Shown here one piece after another: positions 7,259 through 56,073 of a stretch of DNA of 64,000 nucleotides (positions are counted from its first letter, which is position 1; every line of letters begins with the position of its first letter). Below the pieces are notes generated by a model that saw only the letters and a list, made by a program, of their open reading frames with translations, had not been told where the DNA came from and did no database searches. The translations under genes and the position numbers were made by a program. Source of the stretch: an uncultured Candidatus Saccharibacteria bacterium (GTDB lineage: Bacteria; Patescibacteriota; Saccharimonadia; CAILAD01; BJGX01); the NCBI GenBank assembly GCA_964610335.1, contig CAZSVP010000001.1:223442-287441 (forward strand). The letters are read 5' to 3'.

Positions 7259-7302
7259 ATTGTAGCATTATTGGTGGTGTTATAAGTGATACAATGTAGC
7301 CA

Positions 7303-7776
7303 ATGGATACCATCAAGCCGGTAATTGTAATAATCTTGGGCATAGTTCTTCTTGTGGTGTTACTTGGTATGCTCTACGGTACGTTTGTAACTTGGCGCGT
7401 GGAACATGCTAGCCAGCAGGCTGAGTTCCGAGCTGGCACACTACCAACTGAACTTCCGGATGGGGCATATGATGGTACTAGCCCGGATTTGGAACGCCGT
7501 AGTTGGCATGGCAAAAGTTTTGATAGGGCCAAATCAAGTGGCCTGAATCGGATAGGAAACGAAGAGAAATACCCATTTGTTATGAGTTTTGGCAGTGGTT
7601 TGCGAGATCCAATCAAAGTAATTACTATCGACTACAATCTGCCAGAAAATCCATGGTGGTTACGGCTTGTTACAGATGAAATCGTTCAAACAAGCCCAGA
7701 TCAATTTTTGGGTAAAGTTCATGTGCACATATTAGGTTTAACCTTTTCGATCGGATACTTCGAACTACAAAAATAG
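7303..7776 (+). CDS. Hypothetical membrane-anchored protein
   Basis: 157 aa with an N-terminal TM helix. Confidence 0.5.
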   Translation: MDTIKPVIVIILGIVLLVVLLGMLYGTFVTWRVEHASQQAEFRAGTLPTELPDGAYDGTSPDLERRSWHGKSFDRAKSSGLNRIGNEEKYPFVMSFGSGLRDPIKVITIDYNLPENPWWLRLVTDEIVQTSPDQFLGKVHVHILGLTFSIGYFELQK

Positions 7777-11933: not shown

Positions 11934-12413
11934 ATGGCAAAGCAACTTGAACTAGCGGATTTTGGAGGTGGGTGCTTTTGGGGAGTGGAAGAAGTTTTTC
12001 GCACAGCCAAGGGAGTAGTTAAGACCCAAGTAGGCTATGAGGGTGGCCATGTTGCCAATCCCACATATGAGCAAGTAAGTAGTCACACTACAGGTCACGC
12101 CGAAACAGTGCAAGTCTCGTTTGATCCTGACAAAATTAGCTACACAGAGTTACTAGACTTATTTTTTGACCATCACGATCCTACTCAGGTAAATGGGCAG
12201 GGTCCAGACATAGGTGAAAATTACCGTAGTGTGATATTCTACCGCAGCGACGAGCAAAAGAAGCAAGCTGAAGCTAAGATTGTCGAGCTTGATAAATCAG
12301 GTAAATTTAGCAAGCCAATAGCCACTATGGTAGTACCGGCTAGCAATTTTTGGTTAGCCGAAGATTATCATCAACAATATCTACATAAACGAAATCTTGA
12401 TGTTTGTTATTAA
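11934..12413 (+). CDS. msrA: Peptide methionine (S)-S-oxide reductase MsrA
   Basis: GGGCFWGVEEVF active-site motif. RBS aaggaggg. Confidence 0.85.
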   Translation: MAKQLELADFGGGCFWGVEEVFRTAKGVVKTQVGYEGGHVANPTYEQVSSHTTGHAETVQVSFDPDKISYTELLDLFFDHHDPTQVNGQGPDIGENYRSVIFYRSDEQKKQAEAKIVELDKSGKFSKPIATMVVPASNFWLAEDYHQQYLHKRNLDVCY

Positions 12414-13069
12414 CGACTGAGCTTGGTTAGTATCTCTAAGTCAAGCTCATCAAAACTATCAATAATCATGTCTGCCTCGTGCAGGTCTTCAACTGTATTG
12501 AAGCCGTTGTGGTAGCCCACAGCTGTCATGCCGGCAGCGTGGGCGGCAGCAATTCCAGATGCGGCGTCTTCTACTACCACACAATGGCTTGGTGAGATGC
12601 TAAGTTTATGAGCGGCTGTGAGGTATATATCGGGCGATGGCTTGCCATGGACTACATCATCAGCCGTAACAACCTCTTTGAAGAACGGTGTGAGCTGATT
12701 CTTGCGTAGTAACACCTTGGCAACAGAGCGTTTAGAACCTGTGGCCACGGCCATTGGTACACCTTGGTCATATAGTGAGCTAAGAAGTTGAGGAAGTTGC
12801 TTGCTCATGAGTAACTCATGCTTCTGGTAGTATAGGTCACGTTCTAATTTAATCTGGTTGGCAAGCTTGGTGTTGTCTATGTTGACTCCAAACTGGCTTT
12901 CAAACACCTTCACTACGTCGTCAAACTCCATGCCGAGTATTTGTTGGAAAGCATGCTTGGAGAGTTCTATACCACTCTCATGCAAGTAGCTATGCCATAG
13001 TTTGTAGTTGAACGGTATTGTGTCCACAAGTACACCGTCCATATCAAATATGACTGCTAGTTTCTTCAT
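12410..13069 (-). CDS. HAD-superfamily hydrolase (beta-phosphoglucomutase-like)
   Basis: DMDGVLVDT motif I. 219 aa. Confidence 0.8.
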   Translation of the reverse strand: MKKLAVIFDMDGVLVDTIPFNYKLWHSYLHESGIELSKHAFQQILGMEFDDVVKVFESQFGVNIDNTKLANQIKLERDLYYQKHELLMSKQLPQLLSSLYDQGVPMAVATGSKRSVAKVLLRKNQLTPFFKEVVTADDVVHGKPSPDIYLTAAHKLSISPSHCVVVEDAASGIAAAHAAGMTAVGYHNGFNTVEDLHEADMIIDSFDELDLEILTKLSR

Positions 13070-45192: not shown

Positions 45193-45378
45193 CTAGGCCA
45201 TGAACCCGGTGAGAACGAATGCGATGCCGATTGGCATCATGAAGTTGCCAGCCGCCGCTGGGGCGAGCCACTCTGCCTTGAAGTGGTTCTCGGTCAGCAT
45301 GAGTCGGCCAATCTGCCATTGCAGACGTACTCCTTCTGTGAACAGCAACACGCCGAATACCGCGAACATGAGTCTCAT
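45193..45378 (-). CDS. Small membrane protein (high-GC islet)
   Basis: 61 aa and hydrophobic. ATGA overlap with the upstream gene. Confidence 0.4.
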   Translation of the reverse strand: MRLMFAVFGVLLFTEGVRLQWQIGRLMLTENHFKAEWLAPAAAGNFMMPIGIAFVLTGFMA

Positions 45379-45752
45379 GACTCATCTCCTTTCGAGCGCT
45401 CCACGATCTTGACGTGACGTGGTTGGTGGTGGCGACGCGGAGAATCGTGGTGCGGGCGGGTTTGCTTGGGCGTCGGGCGCAACGGCTCGTCGTTCCATCG
45501 ACGGTAGATGTTGTCTACCTGGCGTGGGCAGTCGTTGAGTAGATCATTGGCGATGTAGAAGCTGATGGCGCTGACCGGGGTCATGAGCACCTTCAGCCAC
45601 ACCGGCCAGTCGAGAGCTCCGAACCAGGCGAGTGGCGCGGTGGCCGCCACGATTCCGAACAGCACGATCGGAAACCACAAGATCAGATGTGCACCCGTCA
45701 CGTAGCAGTACCAGCTGATCTCACCGATCACTTCGTTGAACTTGCTCTTCAT
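45375..45752 (-). CDS. Membrane protein with a basic Pro/His/Arg-rich tail (high-GC islet)
   Basis: Start MKSKFN with an aggagg RBS. The track ORF extends further upstream as a low-complexity artefact. Confidence 0.45.
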   Translation of the reverse strand: MKSKFNEVIGEISWYCYVTGAHLILWFPIVLFGIVAATAPLAWFGALDWPVWLKVLMTPVSAISFYIANDLLNDCPRQVDNIYRRWNDEPLRPTPKQTRPHHDSPRRHHQPRHVKIVERSKGDES

Positions 45753-45760
45753 GTGTCCTC

Positions 45761-45910
45761 CTAGCGGACTGTTGTGGTTTGCTGTCCGACCCCACCGGGA
45801 TTGAACGGCTTTGGCGGGGTTGGTTGTTGAGCTGCGATCCAGGTCACTATCACCGTGCAAATGAGCCCGATGACGATAAACCAGATGAATCCTCTGAGGC
45901 AGCCTTTCAT
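45761..45910 (-). CDS. 49-aa single-TM peptide (high-GC islet)
   Basis: MKGCLRGFIWFIVIGLICTVIVTWIAAQQPTPPKPFNPGGVGQQTTTVR. ATGA overlap with the upstream gene. Derived by hand. Confidence 0.3.
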   Translation of the reverse strand: MKGCLRGFIWFIVIGLICTVIVTWIAAQQPTPPKPFNPGGVGQQTTTVR

Positions 45911-46146
45911 GGGCCATACTCCTGGTAGGTGGAAGGTGAGTGTGGCTTACGGCTTTCGATAACGAACATCGTGGCCATAAATACCACGAGCAGACCAGCA
46001 AGCAAACCAAACGACAACTTGCGAAGTCGTATGGCCCGCTTGGTCTGACTGCAATATGCCCAGATTGTTACACCGAGCATTCCCATCCACCCTAACATAG
46101 AGACCAATCCAATGGTCCCCAGAGCTATGTTTGTCTCTGTGACCAT
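45907..46146 (-). CDS. Small membrane protein (high-GC islet)
   Basis: About 79 aa from MVTETNIALG, 2 TM. Confidence 0.35.
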   Translation of the reverse strand: MVTETNIALGTIGLVSMLGWMGMLGVTIWAYCSQTKRAIRLRKLSFGLLAGLLVVFMATMFVIESRKPHSPSTYQEYGP

Positions 46147-46247
46147 CGGGTATCCCTTCTTGTCGTGATTGTCGAGGTGTTCGCAAACCCAAAAAAATCC
46201 AGATTCGCGATCTGGCCAACTATACCATAATTTGTTCAACTTGTCTA

Positions 46248-46299
46248 CTCTCCCAAAACGTTCAAACCTTGAACACTTTGGGAGAACGACAACCAACTG
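46248..46299. repeat. Stem-loop element CTCTCCCAAAACGTTCAA-ACC-TTGAACACTTTGGGAGAACGACAACCAACTG (copy 2)
   Basis: 15-bp imperfect inverted repeat. Shares its 5-prime CTCTCCCAAAA and 3-prime GGGAGARCGACAAYCA with the copy at 45104. Confidence 0.5.
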
Positions 46300-46370
46300 T
46301 TGTGTCCTCGCCCGGCCAGTATCTTATCGCGGCCGGTATGGGGGATGTTAGCAGTACTTTCTTGTTTCTG

Positions 46371-46949
46371 CTAGCACGTTTGGCCTGGTCGCGTGGTCGA
46401 TGTGCCGTATGGAAGGCACATGTTGTCGACCTTGCCCTGTCGCTGCGTCGTGGTCGGAGCCAGGCAGCTGTCGGGCTGCACTACCACGATGGCTGAAATC
46501 GTGCCATTTGGATCCATCGATTGGATGGTGTTCTGTGTGCATGGATCAGCCTTGTACGCTTCGGCCGGCGTTGGGATCTCGGGCTGAACATCTGGCACTG
46601 GGCACTTCCCGGTTGGAACCGTGAACTTTGGTAGTTCGTGGTTCCAACCGTCAATGAATGCCGTGTCGGCCAGGTATCGGAACCTGATCTTGCAGGTACC
46701 ATTGTCCAACAGGCCTTGGATCTCGGCGAGCGCCAACGTCATACCACTCACCTGGTAGCTCGGTGGCTTTTCGCAGCCGCTGGGGCCACACCCTTTTTCT
46801 TGGGGAGGGACCAACGGGTTGTTGAGCGGCGATTGCGAGTCACCGATGGTGGTCGGGCTCTTCACGGCGTCGTCGTTGGCAGCGGGCTGGCCGTTGCACG
46901 CGGTGCACACGAAGAACAGAGTGGACAGGACTAGGATGAGCCGTTTCAT
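46371..46949 (-). CDS. Secreted protein or lipoprotein, Cys/Pro/Thr-rich (high-GC islet)
   Basis: Signal peptide MKRLILVLSTLFFVCTAC. GC-rich codons. Confidence 0.5.
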   Translation of the reverse strand: MKRLILVLSTLFFVCTACNGQPAANDDAVKSPTTIGDSQSPLNNPLVPPQEKGCGPSGCEKPPSYQVSGMTLALAEIQGLLDNGTCKIRFRYLADTAFIDGWNHELPKFTVPTGKCPVPDVQPEIPTPAEAYKADPCTQNTIQSMDPNGTISAIVVVQPDSCLAPTTTQRQGKVDNMCLPYGTSTTRPGQTC

Positions 46950-46970
46950 GGCTCACCACCTTTCATTTTT

Positions 46971-46983
46971 GTTGGTTGTCGTT
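46971..46983. repeat. Inverted copy (GTTGGTTGTCGTT) of the 13-mer AACGACAACCAAC found at 46285-46297
   Basis: Exact 13-nt reverse-complement match. The two copies flank the lipoprotein gene. Confidence 0.5.
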
Positions 46984-47078
46984 GTGGGGTGCTTGCTGGT
47001 TACCTGTTGGATAGGGAAATCAACAAACGCCAATATGTTATCATAATTTATACAATTTGTCAAGTACATTACACTCCA

Positions 47079-48935: not shown

Positions 48936-49017
48936 TTGCAATGGTGGCTGTCACAGATCGTCGTTGTAATCGTACAATAGATTTAAGCCGACCACTGGTA
49001 GTTGGCTTCGACGTCGA

Positions 49018-49263
49018 TTGGGGGAGTACGTGCTTTCTTGGAAGGTTAAACGAAATCGAGTGACGCGCGTACACTCTGGTTTTGATGAAAGTGGTGTGTT
49101 TAGTGCGCGCATTGTACAGGAGCGCAGTAGCAAGGTGACCAACCTCAAGCTATTTTGCCCGCCGACTCGACTTGTTCAGACATTCGAGTACCGAGATGTG
49201 GCTCGGGCAAGGCGTTGCGCAGAAGAGTTTCTGGCCAACAGTGGCAATCGGAGGGGAGGGTAG
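49018..49263 (+). CDS. Hypothetical small protein (high-GC islet). Start codon uncertain
   Basis: 81-aa ORF with a TTG or GTG start. Confidence 0.3.
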   Translation: MGEYVLSWKVKRNRVTRVHSGFDESGVFSARIVQERSSKVTNLKLFCPPTRLVQTFEYRDVARARRCAEEFLANSGNRRGG

Positions 49264-49264
49264 T

Positions 49265-49492
49265 GTGTTTAGCTTGGTGCCATCCGAAGAAGGTGTTGTC
49301 CCGGCCCATTTCAGTTTTTACTACCAAGGAGAACTGGCAGGAGTGATCAACGTACTGGGGCACGGTGTTTACGATGCAATAGCACATGGCGATGGGCTAC
49401 CAGTTCAACTCAACCAAGACGGGCCAGTCACTCTTAGTGAAGCCCGACAACTGTTGCAAGTCTGGGCGACAGGACACAGTCGACAGAAGTAG
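49265..49492 (+). CDS. Hypothetical small protein (high-GC islet)
   Basis: GTG start preceded by ggaggggaggg. About 75 aa. Confidence 0.35.
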   Translation: MFSLVPSEEGVVPAHFSFYYQGELAGVINVLGHGVYDAIAHGDGLPVQLNQDGPVTLSEARQLLQVWATGHSRQK

Positions 49493-49500
49493 GGCTCGGG

Positions 49501-49530
49501 GAAGGACCTCCGGGTCCTTTCTCATTTAGC
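49501..49530 (+). terminator. GC-rich hairpin aggacc-tccg-ggtcct followed by a T-rich tail
   Basis: Read directly. Confidence 0.4.
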
Positions 49531-49609
49531 CTATGCTTGTAGTGATTGATTAAACCAGGCATTATTAGTAAGACCAATCATCCGTCAAAGTCACCAAGGA
49601 GGTGTAATA

Positions 49610-49936
49610 GTGCACGGATGGAGTACCAAATACAAAGCCGATGAGCCACACAGTTTCCAGTTGCACCTTCTCAATCGGTGCCAGACTGACGGGAGAGATC
49701 GACACGACGGCTGTGTGGTAGAGATGGAGCAAACTGGTCGTTTCTACCCCATGACATCATGGGGCTACATGCTGCCAGACGACTCGTGGTTGGAGGGGCC
49801 AGATGCCTTGGCTGTAGCCAAGCAACTGGTGGAGAAGGCACATCAGGCGACTTGTGATGGCCTGACAGAATCGGAAGCGGTGGAATTTGCCCTTCAAGTC
49901 GTTGCTCACGAGCCGCACCAAAACGCATCCAAGTAA
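49610..49936 (+). CDS. Hypothetical protein (high-GC islet)
   Basis: GTG start with an aggaggtg RBS. 108 aa. Confidence 0.4.
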   Translation: MHGWSTKYKADEPHSFQLHLLNRCQTDGRDRHDGCVVEMEQTGRFYPMTSWGYMLPDDSWLEGPDALAVAKQLVEKAHQATCDGLTESEAVEFALQVVAHEPHQNASK

Positions 49937-49972
49937 CAACCAGCTATGCAATGCTGGTCAGTGAATGAGGTT

Positions 49973-50009
49973 CGAGAAGGGGTCCTTCTCGGGCCTCTTC
50001 TTGTTTTTT
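49973..50009 (+). terminator. Rho-independent terminator cgagaagg-ggt-ccttctcg followed by a T-run
   Basis: Read directly. Confidence 0.55.
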
Positions 50010-50048
50010 ATGGCAACTAAAAAACCATCTAAAAATATCAACTATGTC

Positions 50049-50069
50049 ATGCCGGACTCGATCCGGCAT
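50049..50069 (-). terminator. Hairpin atgccgga-ctcga-tccggcat just downstream of the GIY-YIG gene
   Basis: Followed on the minus strand by a T-rich stretch. Confidence 0.45.
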
Positions 50070-50070
50070 C

Positions 50071-50361
50071 TCAAGCTATTTTTGGGTATAGGTCTTGGTA
50101 ATTTGGGTTATCTTTCTCTATAAGTTCTTGTTTCCAGGATCTATGCCATCGCTTCAATTTCTTTTCCCTAAGAATTGCATTCTTAGGGTCATCAAAAACC
50201 TCAAGATATACCAACTTTGTGACATTGTATTTATCTGTAAAACCCTCGACAAGGTGGTTTTTGTGTTCGTAAGTACGACGGACAAGATTGCTTGTGATAC
50301 CAACGTACAAAACAGAATTTCTAGAGTTGGAAAGAATATAGACGTAATAGTTTTTCTTCAT
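50071..50361 (-). CDS. GIY-YIG nuclease family protein (UPF0213-like)
   Basis: YVYIL..VLYVGIT.NL.RR..EH motifs. 96 aa. Confidence 0.75.
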   Translation of the reverse strand: MKKNYYVYILSNSRNSVLYVGITSNLVRRTYEHKNHLVEGFTDKYNVTKLVYLEVFDDPKNAILREKKLKRWHRSWKQELIEKDNPNYQDLYPKIA

Positions 50362-50398: not shown

Positions 50399-50758
50399 TT
50401 ATTTCTTGGCTGTGGGTTTTTTGGTAGCTGGCTTCTTGGCGGCAGCTTTCTTAGTAGTGGCCTTCTTGGCTGTGGCCTTGCCGGTGCCGTAGGCAGCTGG
50501 AGCAGCGCCGTTGTAGGCTAGCGTTAGGCGAGATTTGCGTCGGGCAGCGGTGGATTTGTGTAATACACCTTTTTTGACCGCGCGGTCAATCTCAGAGATA
50601 GCAGCGACTAGCTCAGCCTCGGTCTTGATAGTACCGGCGGCTATAGCATCACGTACTGCTTTGGTCTTCTTGTGTACCGCAACCTTCACGTTTGTGTTGT
50701 AAACGCGGTTTTTCTGGGCTTGGCGGTTGCGCTTGATAGCTGACTGAATAATTGGCAT
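50399..50758 (-). CDS. rpsT: 30S ribosomal protein S20 with a K/A/T-rich C-terminal tail
   Basis: MPIIQSAIKRNRQAQKNR N-terminus. Confidence 0.85.
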   Translation of the reverse strand: MPIIQSAIKRNRQAQKNRVYNTNVKVAVHKKTKAVRDAIAAGTIKTEAELVAAISEIDRAVKKGVLHKSTAARRKSRLTLAYNGAAPAAYGTGKATAKKATTKKAAAKKPATKKPTAKK

Positions 50759-50879
50759 AGGGCTCATCATAGCTTATTTACCCTGGTTTGTAAAGGGTTT
50801 TGCAGTGATGTCGCAATGGTACTATACTGTCCATAAGCTTTTGTGAGCTTGGAAGTACAAAGTAGTGGAGCCTTCTTGG

Positions 50880-51900
50880 CTCAGTTGATCACGAAACGCA
50901 CTTCCGGGTGTTGTTCACAATCAAGCTTGCCTGCTGTGCCCCCGCGTCGAGCGGGGATAGATCCGAAGCAGTAGGTACCGCACCGCGACAACGTTGAAAG
51001 GGGGTATCCATGGTCGCCATCCGTGGATCCACCGCAGCCGTCGCTTCCATCACCGCAGCCAAGAAGAAGAGCTGCACCGGGAGCGCCCGTCCCTGATCCG
51101 CCCGACGACAACCAGGGGGAACCTCATGGTTCGTGACCGCGCATCGCCTGCGTGATCTGTAGGCTCCGGCCTGCAAACCGGCCGCTCCGGCGGTCCACAG
51201 GTGCACTGGGTGCCTCAAGGGGAAAATGGTAAGTAGGTGCTTGCACCGACGCCTCACCAGCCCGCAAGACCAGGCCCAATACCAGCCTGGCACATTCGAG
51301 CCGCACTCACAGCGGCATGTGCCGGCGAGCCCCAGGGTTCGCCGGCACAGCTCGTTATTATCGACAAATTGGTGTTTTTGCGCTATATTTCGGCTACGGC
51401 TCTTTTGCAACTGAAAGCGGTAGGGAAAGCAATCTGATGGGATCGAGCACCTATTAGAAACGCAATCCCAAACCACGATTTACTAGTGCCTGATCACTTA
51501 CTTCCCTACATAGTAAGTGATGATGCGCGGCATCGCGTCCGTGTGGGTAGCTTCATATGTTTGTTGAGGGGTCCGCCGCCGCCGGATCGCGCTCCAGGCC
51601 TCTATGTAGTGTAGCTAGTAAGTCGCAGTTGCAACTGCCAAGACCAGATCGAGTGTCGGTAGGGAGCTGCTATACCCTACAGAAGTGAGACGAGCGGACA
51701 CGTGATGTTGTCTGACTCAGAGCATCCCAAAGCTCGCAGTCTCACCGATCGACTGGCATGCCCTCCGTGTAGCCGGAGGCAGATGCATGTGGTTCTATTG
51801 GGCCTCACCACCGCTGCATCATGATACCAAGGCTCATAATCGTGCCCTTAGTGTCAAACCTCGCCACCCGTAGCCGTCGGGTGGCGTTGTCCGTTATTAT
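50880..51900. other. About 1 kb GC-rich, hairpin-dense segment with no credible ORF. Candidate structured RNA or decayed foreign DNA
   Basis: No ORF of 60 aa or more in any frame across 51480-51940. The only long ORF (50889..51476, minus strand) translates to implausible composition. Many perfect hairpins are present, including ggcacat..gccgc-actcaca-gcggc..atgtgcc, gccggcga-N10-tcgccggc, atcacttact-N9-agtaagtgat and gcagttgcaactgc. Confidence 0.35.
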
Positions 51901-51939
51901 GTTGAAATGTTTTGACAGTAGTGGTAGTATAGGCACGAT

Positions 51940-52716
51940 ATGCAGATACTCGAATTAGCAGCCAAATTACAATCGATCGGATTGAGCGACAAACAGGCCA
52001 AGGTCTATGTAGCCGCTCTTTTTTTGGGCCCCAATTCAGCCCAGAAGATCTCCCAACAAGCCGATGTCAATCGCGCTACCACCTATGTAATACTCGAGGA
52101 ATTGATGGAGATGGGCTTAATTAGCCAAAGCTCAGTGGGTAAGAAGACTGTGTTTGTCGCCGAGGGCGCCGATGCCATCGATCGCCACATCGAGTCGGTC
52201 AAGAAAGAACTCGAGGCCCAACAACAAGAGCTCAAGACGATTGCCCCGGAACTTGAATCAATTGCCCGCAAAGATTCTGCTTCGGCTCCTCAAGTGTTTT
52301 TCTTCAAGGGCAAAGAGGGTATTGAACAGATCAACAGCTACTACTTCAAGAATAGTAAGCCCAAATCTACTAGCTATATATTCTCTGATCGAGACAAGGT
52401 TAAAGAAATTATTCCGCATGCTTTTGAGCAGCACAAAGCTAATCGCAAAGCCAAACAGATTGCGTCGCGTGGAATAGCATACGATTCTACAGGTGAGTTG
52501 GTCAACGTTAAGTCAGAGAAGAAAGAGCGCAAGCTAGTCGACATTCGTCCGGCCGCTGAGATCACTATGCAAGAAGACTTTGTGATGTTTGCCACTTACA
52601 ATACTCATGAGCATGTTAGTGTAGTACTGGAAAGTCCCGAGATTGCTGAGGCTTTGCGACAGATATTTGATCTTGCTTGGCAGGGTCTTCCAGCCACCAA
52701 GAAGTCAAAAAAATAA
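51940..52716 (+). CDS. TrmB family transcriptional regulator
   Basis: N-terminal wHTH (LGLSDKQAKVYVAALFLGPNSAQKIS...VNRATTYVILEELMEMGLI) and a C-terminal TrmB-like domain. Confidence 0.7.
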   Translation: MQILELAAKLQSIGLSDKQAKVYVAALFLGPNSAQKISQQADVNRATTYVILEELMEMGLISQSSVGKKTVFVAEGADAIDRHIESVKKELEAQQQELKTIAPELESIARKDSASAPQVFFFKGKEGIEQINSYYFKNSKPKSTSYIFSDRDKVKEIIPHAFEQHKANRKAKQIASRGIAYDSTGELVNVKSEKKERKLVDIRPAAEITMQEDFVMFATYNTHEHVSVVLESPEIAEALRQIFDLAWQGLPATKKSKK

Positions 52717-53157
52717 CACCTTGATTAGGTGTTATCTTTATAATAATTGCTCATACATCGATGTCTGCAGTAAATAGCAGCCCCAAAACATCGAGACCTC
52801 CGAGGCTCCAACGAATGTACGTCAGAGCAGTGAGGGTGTTTTTAGTATCCATCTGGGGATGGATTTGAGTCACTTGTTAGGTGATCTAATCACAGATGCA
52901 GTTAATCAGTCGTCAGCGCCCATGGTGGGCCCCTTTCGGTCTGAATAAACCAGCATAGTGACTGCGCTACTAGGTGGTAGCGTGCACTTGGCAGATCACG
53001 CAGCGGACAGGGACGGTGGTACTTCGGTTGTTGTGGTACATTTGAACGTCTCCCGGTGTCGGGTGGATGTGACTGTGACCAAAAGCATTGGCTTAAAGTC
53101 ACCTATATCATAACTCTTTGCATTATTTTGTCAATATTTATCGACATAAACGGAAGC

Positions 53158-53184
53158 GACCCTAGCCCAGTTAGGGCTAGGGTC
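53158..53184 (-). terminator. Hairpin gaccctagccc-agtta-gggctagggtc downstream of the Cys-rich gene
   Basis: Read directly. Confidence 0.45.
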
Positions 53185-53263
53185 GTGACCCCATGTACTC
53201 GCTTTTGGTAAAACGAGCTGCAAGAGACACATGGCTTCCTTGGACGGCTAGAGCTGATCAGGC

Positions 53264-53887
53264 TCAGTGCCCATTGCACCAGCCGTTGTTGCAGTTGCTG
53301 CACTTGCCACATCCGCTCTCGGAGTGTGAGCAACCGCTGGCCAGGATCTGGGCGACCTCGCGATTGGCGCCGTTGATGCCGGCCACCTGTAGCTCTGCTT
53401 CGTTGCTCACGCAGTTGAGTTCCGCAGAGGGTGCTGAACGTGAGCACTTGCCGTCGTTGCCACCACCACCTCGTGCGTCGCAGAAGGCGGTGGCCGTCCA
53501 CAACACGGGGTTGTAGCTGATGCCGTGCTTGTCCATGAAGGCAGTGGTGTCGCCGATGGTCATGCCGGAGCTGGGTTGCATTGGGTTGTCGGCTGGCTCG
53601 TGGTGGATGAACCGTCCGGCCACGCGCTGGCAGAAGCCGGCGTAGGCCTTGGTGTACAGGATGAAGGTGTGCCAACCGATGTCGACCGGCTTGCTTGGCG
53701 CGAAGTTCTGGTCGGGGTAGTCGGCGCACATCTTCAGGAACCCGAGGGCTCCATCGATGATCAGCTCAGCGGCTTCGCGGGTGACGCCTTCGTCGTCGAC
53801 CACGCGGTTGGCTAGCCGGTCGTAGAGGACCGGATGCACCAGCTCGCTGATAGGTGGGGTGGCCGTGATGGCCTCGTTGGTAAGCAT
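53264..53887 (-). CDS. Hypothetical 207-aa protein with a Cys/Gly/Ser/Asn-rich C-terminal tail (high-GC islet)
   Basis: Start MLTNEAI with an aggaga RBS (the track ORF extends to 53929). Ten Cys in the last 75 aa, ending GCSHSESGCGKCSNCNNGWCNGH. Confidence 0.5.
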   Translation of the reverse strand: MLTNEAITATPPISELVHPVLYDRLANRVVDDEGVTREAAELIIDGALGFLKMCADYPDQNFAPSKPVDIGWHTFILYTKAYAGFCQRVAGRFIHHEPADNPMQPSSGMTIGDTTAFMDKHGISYNPVLWTATAFCDARGGGGNDGKCSRSAPSAELNCVSNEAELQVAGINGANREVAQILASGCSHSESGCGKCSNCNNGWCNGH

Positions 53888-53980
53888 GATGCTCTCCTGG
53901 GGGTGTCTCTTGCTTGTGGGTGAACACACAAACTGTCATGTATCATCAACAGTATGTGATATGCGTATAATATAGTATCT

Positions 53981-54231: not shown

Positions 54232-54324
54232 ATGTCAGGAGGCGACAACGCCGATTCGGCGAACAGCACCGGCGGCAGCCAGAGCGGCAGCCAGCAGGGC
54301 AACGACACCGGTTGGGGCAAGTGA
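54232..54324 (+). CDS. 30-aa Gly/Ser/Asn-rich peptide ORF
   Basis: Strong RBS gaggagggg 4 nt upstream of the ATG. MSGGDNADSANSTGGSQSGSQQGNDTGWGK. Confidence 0.35.
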   Translation: MSGGDNADSANSTGGSQSGSQQGNDTGWGK

Positions 54325-54344
54325 TCCCAGCCGACACCAGCTGC

Positions 54345-55541: not shown

Positions 55542-55610
55542 GCTAGCCAGCAAGATTTATCTTGCGGCTCTCTCAAGTACATCCACAACCCCTAGCCCCT
55601 AGGAGGGGAC

Positions 55611-55865
55611 ATGACACATCCGGATCAGATCCGAATCAACGAATGGTGGCTAGCCGAAGGGCTCGGCGCCAGCGCCGACATCGGCTTGGCCGCCACACCT
55701 CGTGGTTCCAACCATTCGATGATGGTGGCAGATCGTGAGCGGGGCATCAAGTCCACCGCGGCTGCCAAAGCCGAGCTCGTCGCCGACGGTCTCATCGACG
55801 AGGCCGGCCGGCTCACCACCAAGGCCAAGGAGATGGGTCTGCGCATGCCGGAGCGACACCGGTAG
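55611..55865 (+). CDS. Hypothetical small protein (high-GC islet)
   Basis: 84 aa with an aggagggg RBS. Confidence 0.4.
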   Translation: MTHPDQIRINEWWLAEGLGASADIGLAATPRGSNHSMMVADRERGIKSTAAAKAELVADGLIDEAGRLTTKAKEMGLRMPERHR

Positions 55866-56073
55866 CAGAACACTTCTCAAGAGTACCTGCATGAGAGCCC
55901 TCCGACCCACCAAACCAAGTGGCTCGGAGCAGCTCCCAGACCAATCATATTGGTTGGCCTAGGAGCTGAACGAAGTTCAGCTATTGCTCCTTGCAATATA
56001 TTTGTGTTCGTCGATTTGTTTACAAACTGTAAGCAGTTTGACGGACACAAAACTACTGAAAGGAAAGACCGTC

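Follow-up and report, generated by a model that had tools for sequence, protein, structure and literature searches.

Two conserved structured elements, probably RNA genes, between rpsT and a TrmB-like regulator gene in a narrow clade of Saccharibacteria

Introduction

Few large structured RNAs of unknown function have been described in bacteria, and the study of each class has proved rewarding. The large ornate non-coding RNA (ncRNA) classes were found by a signature which OLE, GOLLD, ROOL, HEARO and raiA share with the locus described here: a size of about 0.5 kb, a GC content above that of the genome, an unusually long intergenic region, many covarying helices, apparently independent transcription and a patchy, lineage-restricted distribution. 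This locus is the gap of 1169 bases (50771-51939) that separates rpsT, the gene for ribosomal protein S20 (50399-50770, minus strand), from a TrmB-like regulator gene (51940-52716, plus strand) in a stretch of 64,000 nucleotides of contig CAZSVP010000001.1, from a Saccharibacteria (TM7) genome. We call this whole stretch the window. Its assignment follows from the TrmB-like regulator and S20, the nearest relatives of which belong exclusively to Saccharibacteria metagenome-assembled genomes (MAGs).

Saccharibacteria are ultra-small episymbionts with reduced genomes, so that a conserved non-coding kilobase or so comes at a cost to them and is probably functional. We know of no large structured RNA reported to be specific to Saccharibacteria or to the candidate phyla radiation, and a full-text, non-exhaustive search of the literature returned nothing relevant on structured RNAs in these organisms. 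An earlier note on this DNA had proposed that the gap might hold a single large structured RNA or decayed foreign DNA. What it carries is two conserved, strand-specific structured elements for which no described family gave a match, named RNA-A and RNA-B in what follows.

Conservation of fold, strand and sequence

The rpsT-TrmB loci of relatives, numbered here with the prefix L, were obtained by exact-protein look-ups and one genome scan. They gave an alignment of 8 sequences from four lineages for RNA-A (A5) and one of 7 sequences for RNA-B (A7). Seventeen pairs of RNA-A change on both sides, against 5.4±1.8 after column shuffling (0 of 500 shuffles) and 3-8 when partners are slid. RNA-B has 18 such pairs, against 6.9±1.8 in shuffles (0 of 500) and 1-6 with slid partners; an alignment restricted to 6 sequences yields 16 covarying pairs against 5.9±1.8. 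The share of alignment cells that are paired, 96.1% in A5 and 97.8% in A7, is inflated, because the pairs were counted on the very alignments from which the structures had been predicted.

The two strands are not equivalent. G-U cells number 100 in RNA-A and 145 in RNA-B, against 11 and 6 A-C cells, and the consensus energy, forward versus reverse, is -167.8 versus -147.0 for RNA-A and -186.6 versus -125.9 for RNA-B, which favours the plus strand. Compared with dinucleotide shuffles, the minimum free energy of RNA-A has a z-score of -3.40 on the plus strand and -3.17 on the minus strand; that of RNA-B reaches -4.73 and -2.08. The hairpins and the palindrome which the earlier note had quoted are all present, a few bases away from where it had placed them: GGCACAT..GCCGC-ACTCACA-GCGGC..ATGTGCC at 51289-51323, a GC-rich hairpin at 51318-51349, ATCACTTACT..AGTAAGTGAT at 51493-51521 and the 14-bp palindrome GCAGTTGCAACTGC at 51624-51637. 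The last exists as a sequence, but in the predicted fold half of it pairs upstream (51405-51413 with 51626-51634) and not with itself.

Between the window and L015, identity is 77.5% for RNA-A and 82.3% for RNA-B, alongside 79.4% for the TrmB DNA and 81.6% for rpsT, while 60 of 135 third codon positions of TrmB differ. The rate at which RNA-A and RNA-B diverge is close to that of the genes on either side and well below that of third codon positions. Decaying DNA would not evolve in this way, and decay is therefore not supported. With L048, RNA-A is 78% identical and the TrmB gene 64.8%. Covariation in homologous segments, a kind of check that the earlier note had put forward, stands above controls for both elements and, together with strand asymmetry and purifying selection, backs its idea of a structured RNA.

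Two separable units

The whole 1.1-kb segment is found in the close strains L002, L003, L023, L052 and L053 (92-97% identity) and in L015 (about 80%). L039 (88%) and the L021/L040-L050 group (77%) have its first half alone. In L011, L025 and L051, where TrmB identity is at most 70%, the gap measures 138-280 nt and holds neither RNA-A nor RNA-B. This places RNA-A in four lineages and RNA-B in two. As judged from these loci, the segment is restricted to a narrow clade of Saccharibacteria and is made of two separable units.

Two of the loci call for a comment of their own. L015 (contig CAVPRT010000011.1, 218 kb) displays the Saccharibacteria gene order fpg-holA-rpsT-RNA-A-RNA-B-TrmB, yet it was assigned to an Acidimicrobiales MAG, perhaps by an error of binning, perhaps through co-abundance of an epibiont with an actinobacterial host. 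Strain mosaicism shows in L002: against the window, it has 31 changes in the 372 nt of rpsT and only 2 in the 777 nt of TrmB. With its rpsT divergent and its TrmB near-identical, a recombination breakpoint falls within the RNA-A/RNA-B region.

Promoters and terminators were sought as consensus matches only. A promoter-like site, TTTGCA-18-TATACT (50799-50828, plus strand), stands ahead of RNA-A, back to back with the rpsT promoter, and none of the four lineages has lost its hexamers (TTGCAA-17-TACAAT in L021, TTACAG..TACAAT in L015). A terminator-like GC-rich hairpin of 14 bp (51318-51349, plus strand), 11 of its 14 pairs being invariant, would end RNA-A, with the tail GCUCGUUAUUAU extending to 51360. 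RNA-B has a promoter-like site of its own, TCGACA-17-TATATT (51361-51389, plus strand, a 10/12 match), invariant at every locus that carries this element, and a terminator-like hairpin with a U-rich tail (51858-51900, plus strand; 51878-51893 in the scan). A further promoter-like site, for TrmB, was picked up by the scan at 51902-51930 on the plus strand, and none on the minus strand from 50836 to 51900. We infer two transcription units, both on the plus strand and side by side, with RNA ends placed at these signals. The single RNA of 1 kb imagined in the earlier note gives way to two units, each bounded by a promoter-like and a terminator-like site, since some relatives that have the first precisely lack the second.

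Anatomy of RNA-A

The predicted transcript of RNA-A runs from about 50835 to 51360 on the plus strand, or about 525 nt. Its GC content is 61.5% and that of RNA-B 53.9%, against 46.9% for the whole window. It begins with a hairpin domain (50843-50918) in which the internal loop AGUUGAUCA is invariant and the helix 50847-50856/50900-50909 changes both sides of 6 of its 10 pairs. Towards the 3' end, the hairpin CCAGGC-CCAAUACCA-GCCUGG (51270-51290) is nearly invariant in all lineages.

Along RNA-A lie three motifs that look like ribosome-binding sites (RBS), each made of a Shine-Dalgarno (SD)-like run followed by AUGGU. The first is held in a 12-bp hairpin (51000-51033; 11 of 12 pairs invariant in four lineages) that buries both an SD-like GGGGG (51000-51004) and the AUG (51010-51012) of a short open reading frame (ORF), sORF1 (51010-51096, MVAIRGSTAAVASITAAKKKSCTGSARP). 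This frame has 28 codons in the window and 28-31 across lineages. Every lineage preserves its start, stop and frame, the SD is properly spaced, and the only indels, of 9 and 3 nt, fall within triplet-repeat sequence. Ser, Thr, Ala and Lys abound in the products, none of which has hydrophobic residues in a run of membrane-spanning length. Substitutions tell another story: the nonsynonymous rate dN exceeds the synonymous rate dS in 10 of 10 pairwise comparisons, and likewise in 3 of 3 comparisons of the antisense frame. Because dN/dS is above 1 in sense and antisense frames alike, constraint bears on the RNA rather than on the peptide. A minus-strand coding gene overlapping sORF1 was considered and rejected: its frame is kept across only some 36 codons, dN/dS is above 1, and its flanks are frameshifted between lineages.

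The second motif (51115-51155, plus strand) comprises an SD at 51115-51119 and sORF2 (51126-51155, MVRDRASPA). All lineages keep start, stop and frame, and the peptide MVR[D/E/V]RASPA, over 9-11 codons; 5 of 6 substitutions affect third codon positions (binomial p ~0.02). In L021, G-to-A changes convert the first G-run to GGAGG and the second SD to AGGAGGAG, with SD character kept. The third motif (51219-51230, plus strand) has no conserved frame behind it: the ORF at 51226-51414 is frameshifted in L015 and meets a stop at codon 4 in L039 (alignment A5). These motifs are a rarity. The pattern GGGG-N2-7-ATGGT has 4 distinct sites on both strands of the window, 3 of them in RNA-A, and an SD-like motif precedes just 9 of 47 long ORFs. 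A -10-like TANNNT box occurs 4-12 nt before the start codon of 26 of the 47, against 11% at random positions, and the sequence suggests that most genes of the window are leaderless (849-2352, 7302-7776, 12409-13069 and 51940-52716, for example), rpsT and the TrmB-like gene included.

Anatomy of RNA-B

RNA-B is a predicted multi-domain transcript of about 505 nt (about 51396-51900, plus strand). In the consensus folds, a multi-branch domain 1 (51401-51643) is closed by 51405-51413/51626-51634 and followed by domain 2 (51644-51756), a three-way junction. Three stem-loops come next, and then the terminator-like hairpin. Two stretches stand out as fixed points. One is a core motif, CUGUUGAGGGGU (its 5' part also given as GAGGGGU), a stem-loop, then AUCGCGCUCCAG, at 51559-51599; it occurs once in the window, with 0 expected by chance. 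The other is a block of 36 nt (51747-51782), including the hairpin 51759-51781, which is identical in all carriers of RNA-B and is the longest exact block shared by the window and L015, at an overall identity of about 80%.

Five stem-loops behave in the opposite way. Compared with L002, Hv1 (51429-51463) differs at 17 of 39 positions and Hv2 (51493-51521, the hairpin of ATCACTTACT) at 16 of 32, while TrmB, next door, differs by 0.3%: the hypervariable stems are some 45-50% diverged and every allele folds. The pairing of Hv2 is preserved by G-U-compatible changes. Hv3 (51692-51718) belongs to domain 2, and the 3' stem-loops Hv4 and Hv5 (51782-51856) are variable in L053 and L015. All four combinations of Hv1/Hv2 alleles with Hv3 alleles are met among close strains, and the alleles therefore recombine. 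By these comparisons RNA-B is a near-invariant core bearing five hypervariable stem-loops.

The element also sits in a discrete unit. A 9-bp direct repeat, CGTTATTAT, has a first copy at 51353-51361 and a second at 51892-51900, inside the terminator-like hairpin and tail of RNA-B; the 539 bp that comprise the RNA-B gene and the second copy (51362-51900) are exactly what the L039 and L021/L040 lineages lack. L039 offers an empty site, CTCGTTATTAT|GTTGAAA, with nothing between, and in lineages without RNA-B both blastn and nhmmer skip from query position 591 to 1113/1124. Presence of RNA-B does not follow the similarity of RNA-A: L039, 89.7% identical, lacks it, and L015, 77.5% identical, has it. 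Terminal inverted repeats of the unit do not exceed 5 bp (GACAA), and neither the window nor some 200 kb of related loci yielded a second copy of RNA-B. Since the divergence of RNA-B from L015 matches that of the flanking genes, vertical descent with deletion between the repeats is the simplest history.

The core motif recurs elsewhere, in a non-syntenic ORF-free element, B', of L040/L048 (nhmmer E 3.9e-5, and pattern search). On the B' of L048, a covariance model of RNA-B, R1, scores 25.9 bits (E 3e-4) over a common motif of 38 nt, and the rest of B' does not align with RNA-B. We looked at RNA-B as a multi-copy family and dropped the idea: R1 finds just the B' motif and nothing else in 206 kb. 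B' itself is an element of about 530 nt (L048:4499-3960, minus strand) lodged between a 30-codon frame and a DHH gene. That frame, MSGGDNADSANSTGGSQSGSQQGNDTGWGK, is conserved in the window too (54233-54325, plus strand), with a strong SD and a terminator hairpin; the window has no B'-like element at the corresponding site.

Links between the two RNAs did not hold either. A kissing interaction of AGGCCCAAUA (51272-51281) with UAUUGGGCCU (51796-51805) is countered by an estimated 0.24 or so 10-mer matches expected by chance, by the lack of compensatory change in L015 and by the conservation of the RNA-A loop, which is equal in lineages without RNA-B. For the 9-mer CAAGACCAG, common to both, about one such match is expected by chance.

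Searches against known RNAs, proteins and elements

The earlier note had expected a non-canonical RNA, and this stands. Rfam 15 has no match at gathering score in the whole window. At E≤10, within 50600-52100, the sole match is P35 on the terminator hairpin; with 22.5 bits where the gathering score is 70, it is a chance match. At E≤1 the five homologous loci searched yield none. Neither GOLLD, ROOL, HEARO, OLE and raiA, which that note had singled out, nor any other Rfam family was matched. RNase P, signal recognition particle (SRP) and 6S RNA have no Rfam match at E≤10 in 50600-52100, and ARAGORN reports no tRNA or tmRNA gene in the window, in agreement with the absence of RNase P, tmRNA and SRP motifs noticed before. 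No feature supports RNase P, tmRNA, group I or II introns, IS200/605-type ends, a retron or CRISPR/TIGR arrays; for a class C group II intron in particular, no Rfam group II model was matched and the 539-bp unit does not start with GUGYG.

Protein coding fares no better. The single ORF of at least 60 aa in the gap, 50889-51476 on the minus strand, has 195 aa, of which 22 are R, 13 C and 5 W, and is as implausible as had been thought: among relatives it is cut to 105, 74 and 75 aa, with indels of 1, 2 and 4 nt along the frame. From 51476 to 51940 there is indeed no ORF of at least 60 aa, the longest having 46. To call the segment ORF-free is right as far as conserved long frames go, but not for the conserved short frames of RNA-A at 51010-51096 and 51126-51155. 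Whatever the frame, no piece of an ORF has a match in Pfam or NCBIfam. When 1.84 billion representative proteins were searched exhaustively with the 195-aa frame (phmmer), only ORF calls from the same locus and clade and two low-complexity matches came back; the protein collection holds three clusters of such spurious calls from the rpsT-TrmB locus, all of the same clade. A word-indexed protein search with this ORF, as a proxy for DNA homologs, gave nothing.

Among mobile elements, blastn in distant mode finds no match in plasmids and phages, and an exact-pattern scan of viral contigs with one conserved block per RNA finds none. A metagenome scan with one pattern, GACCAGGNCCAATNCCAGCCTGG, probably too strict, gave 3 matches, all due to chance and without wider similarity; the two that were inspected, L030 and L032, fall within long ORFs.

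What the gap most likely holds

We consider that the gap is probably home to two distinct RNA genes, each of some 0.5 kb, both on the plus strand, restricted to one lineage and maintained for their fold. Our best guess is that they are accessory structured RNAs, of which RNA-A would be ribosome-engaging or dual-function. With three SD-AUGGU motifs, each inside a conserved helix, and two open short frames, RNA-A would most likely engage ribosomes, either as a structure-gated, dual-function RNA with tiny ORFs or as an RBS mimic; we do not think that it encodes a conventional protein. RNA-B would most likely be a non-coding RNA of the scaffold or ribonucleoprotein type, with peripheral stem-loops that tolerate diversity, or are selected for it, in a discrete 539-bp unit that may be gained or lost between its 9-bp direct repeats. 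A bolder version can be spelled out, as a long shot: RNA-A would be an RBS decoy for the 30S subunit or an SD-recognising factor, tuning translation in a largely leaderless genome, and RNA-B a new class of large ornate RNA with diversifying specificity stem-loops, carried in an excisable cassette. If this were true, large functional RNAs peculiar to the candidate phyla radiation would be known for the first time.

Several points weigh against two fold-maintained RNA genes. Besides the inflation of the paired percentages already mentioned, the independent lineages are four for RNA-A and two to three for RNA-B. Promoters and terminators of both units are consensus matches from which expression is deduced, and the tails of both terminators are poor U-tracts that begin a few bases past the stem. 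The narrow distribution is equally expected of a selfish or recently acquired element. RNA-B is dispensable, as it can disappear while RNA-A stays. Finally, translation of the short frames is weakly supported, dN/dS of sORF1 being above 1 and triplet-repeat slippage alone being enough to give its indels in multiples of three.

Of the other explanations, the one that comes closest, although unlikely, is that RNA-A is the mRNA of a small protein: sORF1, and perhaps sORF2, would make a functional peptide and the rest would be a structured untranslated region gating its translation, on the model of type I toxin mRNAs or of delta-hemolysin in RNAIII. The start, stop and frame of sORF1 kept in four lineages with indels in multiples of three, the mostly wobble variation of sORF2, strong SDs where only 9 of 47 ORFs have one, and an SD and AUG buried in an invariant hairpin would all fit. 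The peptide of sORF1 is nevertheless non-hydrophobic with dN/dS above 1, the third SD-AUG has no conserved frame, there is no antisense promoter-like site, Pfam and NCBIfam have no match, and some 300 nt beyond the short frames are equally conserved. Less likely still is a mobile or selfish nature of RNA-B, possibly shared by RNA-A: a non-autonomous element that goes in behind terminator hairpins and is folded for the sake of mobility rather than for the cell. Such an element would account for a 539-bp unit between repeats CGTTATTAT that is precisely absent in L039 and L021/L040, for a presence that departs from the RNA-A similarity tree (L039 lacks it, L015 has it), and for the related B' that follows another terminator, at a different site, in L048. 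It would leave aside the want of terminal inverted repeats beyond 5 bp, of a second copy in the window or the other loci examined, of any transposase, reverse transcriptase or Rfam intron or HEARO signal, and of matches in viral, plasmid and phage searches; moreover, an RNA-B 82% identical to that of L015, diverged like its flanking genes, fits vertical descent with deletion.

Two further explanations rank below these, the latter last. The segment is very unlikely to act in cis as a long regulatory leader, attenuating read-through into the TrmB-like gene by way of a leader peptide. Short frames do lie upstream of a strong terminator hairpin, with the downstream gene on the same strand, and GGCACAU (51289-51295) can pair with AUGUGCC (51317-51323), overlapping the 5' arm of the terminator. 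This alternative pairing, however, has 7 bp in the window and only 4-5 bp in L015 and L039; beside its start codon TrmB keeps a conserved promoter of its own, shared with relatives that have neither RNA; RNA-B has its own promoter-like site, and the regulator is present where neither RNA is. We give hardly any credit to decayed foreign DNA or a frameshifted pseudogene, the other suggestion of the earlier note. A GC content above that of the genome, a patchy distribution and a 195-aa ORF that resembles an out-of-frame translation had made it reasonable, but the segment is conserved like the neighbouring genes, with compensatory changes, no frame matches a protein family, and phmmer with the 195-aa frame retrieves just ORF calls of the same locus.

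Neighbouring features in the window

Beyond TrmB, another ORF-free stretch resembles a unit (52740-53136, minus strand): a promoter-like TTGACA-16-TATGAT at about 53136-53100 points left towards a post-TrmB hairpin (about 52717-52740). The gap of 547 nt that contains it (52717-53263) is found only in close relatives, with 88-100% identity. Islands of 58-64% GC in this 47% GC genome occur at 53264-53929 (minus strand), 45200-47000 and 55550-56000; one of them encodes a UCP032817-like protein (PF27765, from precomputed annotation) that is absent from the L048 lineage. A foreign origin of these islands is possible.

On the other side, a free-standing 96-aa GIY-YIG protein (50071-50361, minus strand) adjoins rpsT in the window and in L052, and other short ORFs take that place in L002 and L023. 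It may be a mobile endonuclease gene. Further left, 48936-50070 has only ORFs of 106 and 108 aa in the window, with 59-78% identity across all lineages; in the other lineages ORFs are called there, at 73-77 and 108-114 aa, and Pfam matches none of them. Being aligned and called across lineages, these ORFs are probably real small proteins.

Comparison with known systems

It may emerge that both RNAs are accessory or selfish elements specific to their lineage, and that their general importance is limited. Two of their features nonetheless lead to concrete hypotheses: three RBS-like sites among genes that mostly look leaderless, and stem-loops some 45-50% diverged beside a neighbour gene diverged by 0.3%. 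It is with these in mind that the locus may be set against described systems. What separates it from OLE, GOLLD, ROOL, HEARO and raiA, in spite of the common signature, is the lack of any covariance-model match at E≤10, a much narrower clade and the adjacency of two different RNAs; RNA-B further departs from large ornate ncRNAs by its hypervariable stem-loops and its direct-repeat bounds. Among those classes, ROOL, GOLLD and OLE build higher-order assemblies.

RNA-A, a structured RNA of about 500 nt with promoter-like and terminator-like sites and a frame of 28-31 codons behind an SD, recalls the dual-function small RNAs with a small ORF: RNAIII/hld of Staphylococcus aureus, SgrS/SgrT and SR1/SR1P. 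It has no homology to them in sequence or structure, its sORF1 peptide is not under purifying selection, and it has three RBS-like sites, not one. Several SD-like purine-rich motifs repeated along the molecule bring to mind the RBS-mimic sponge RNAs CsrB, RsmY and RsmZ; in RNA-A, however, there are just three, they include an AUG, and they lie inside stems, not in GGA hairpin loops. A long, highly folded RNA with a tiny frame, the SD and AUG of which are sequestered, is also what type I toxin mRNAs of the hok/sok kind look like. Unlike these, RNA-A has a non-hydrophobic sORF1 peptide and no antisense promoter-like site in the consensus scan, and it persists in lineages with or without RNA-B.

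RNA-B, for its part, resembles miniature inverted-repeat transposable elements (MITEs) and similar non-autonomous insertion elements as a discrete unit with 9-bp flanking direct repeats and presence/absence polymorphism. It differs from them in being single-copy in the loci examined and devoid of terminal inverted repeats, in having promoter-like and terminator-like sites of its own, and in showing covarying RNA pairing that is strand-specific, as its G-U pairs reveal.

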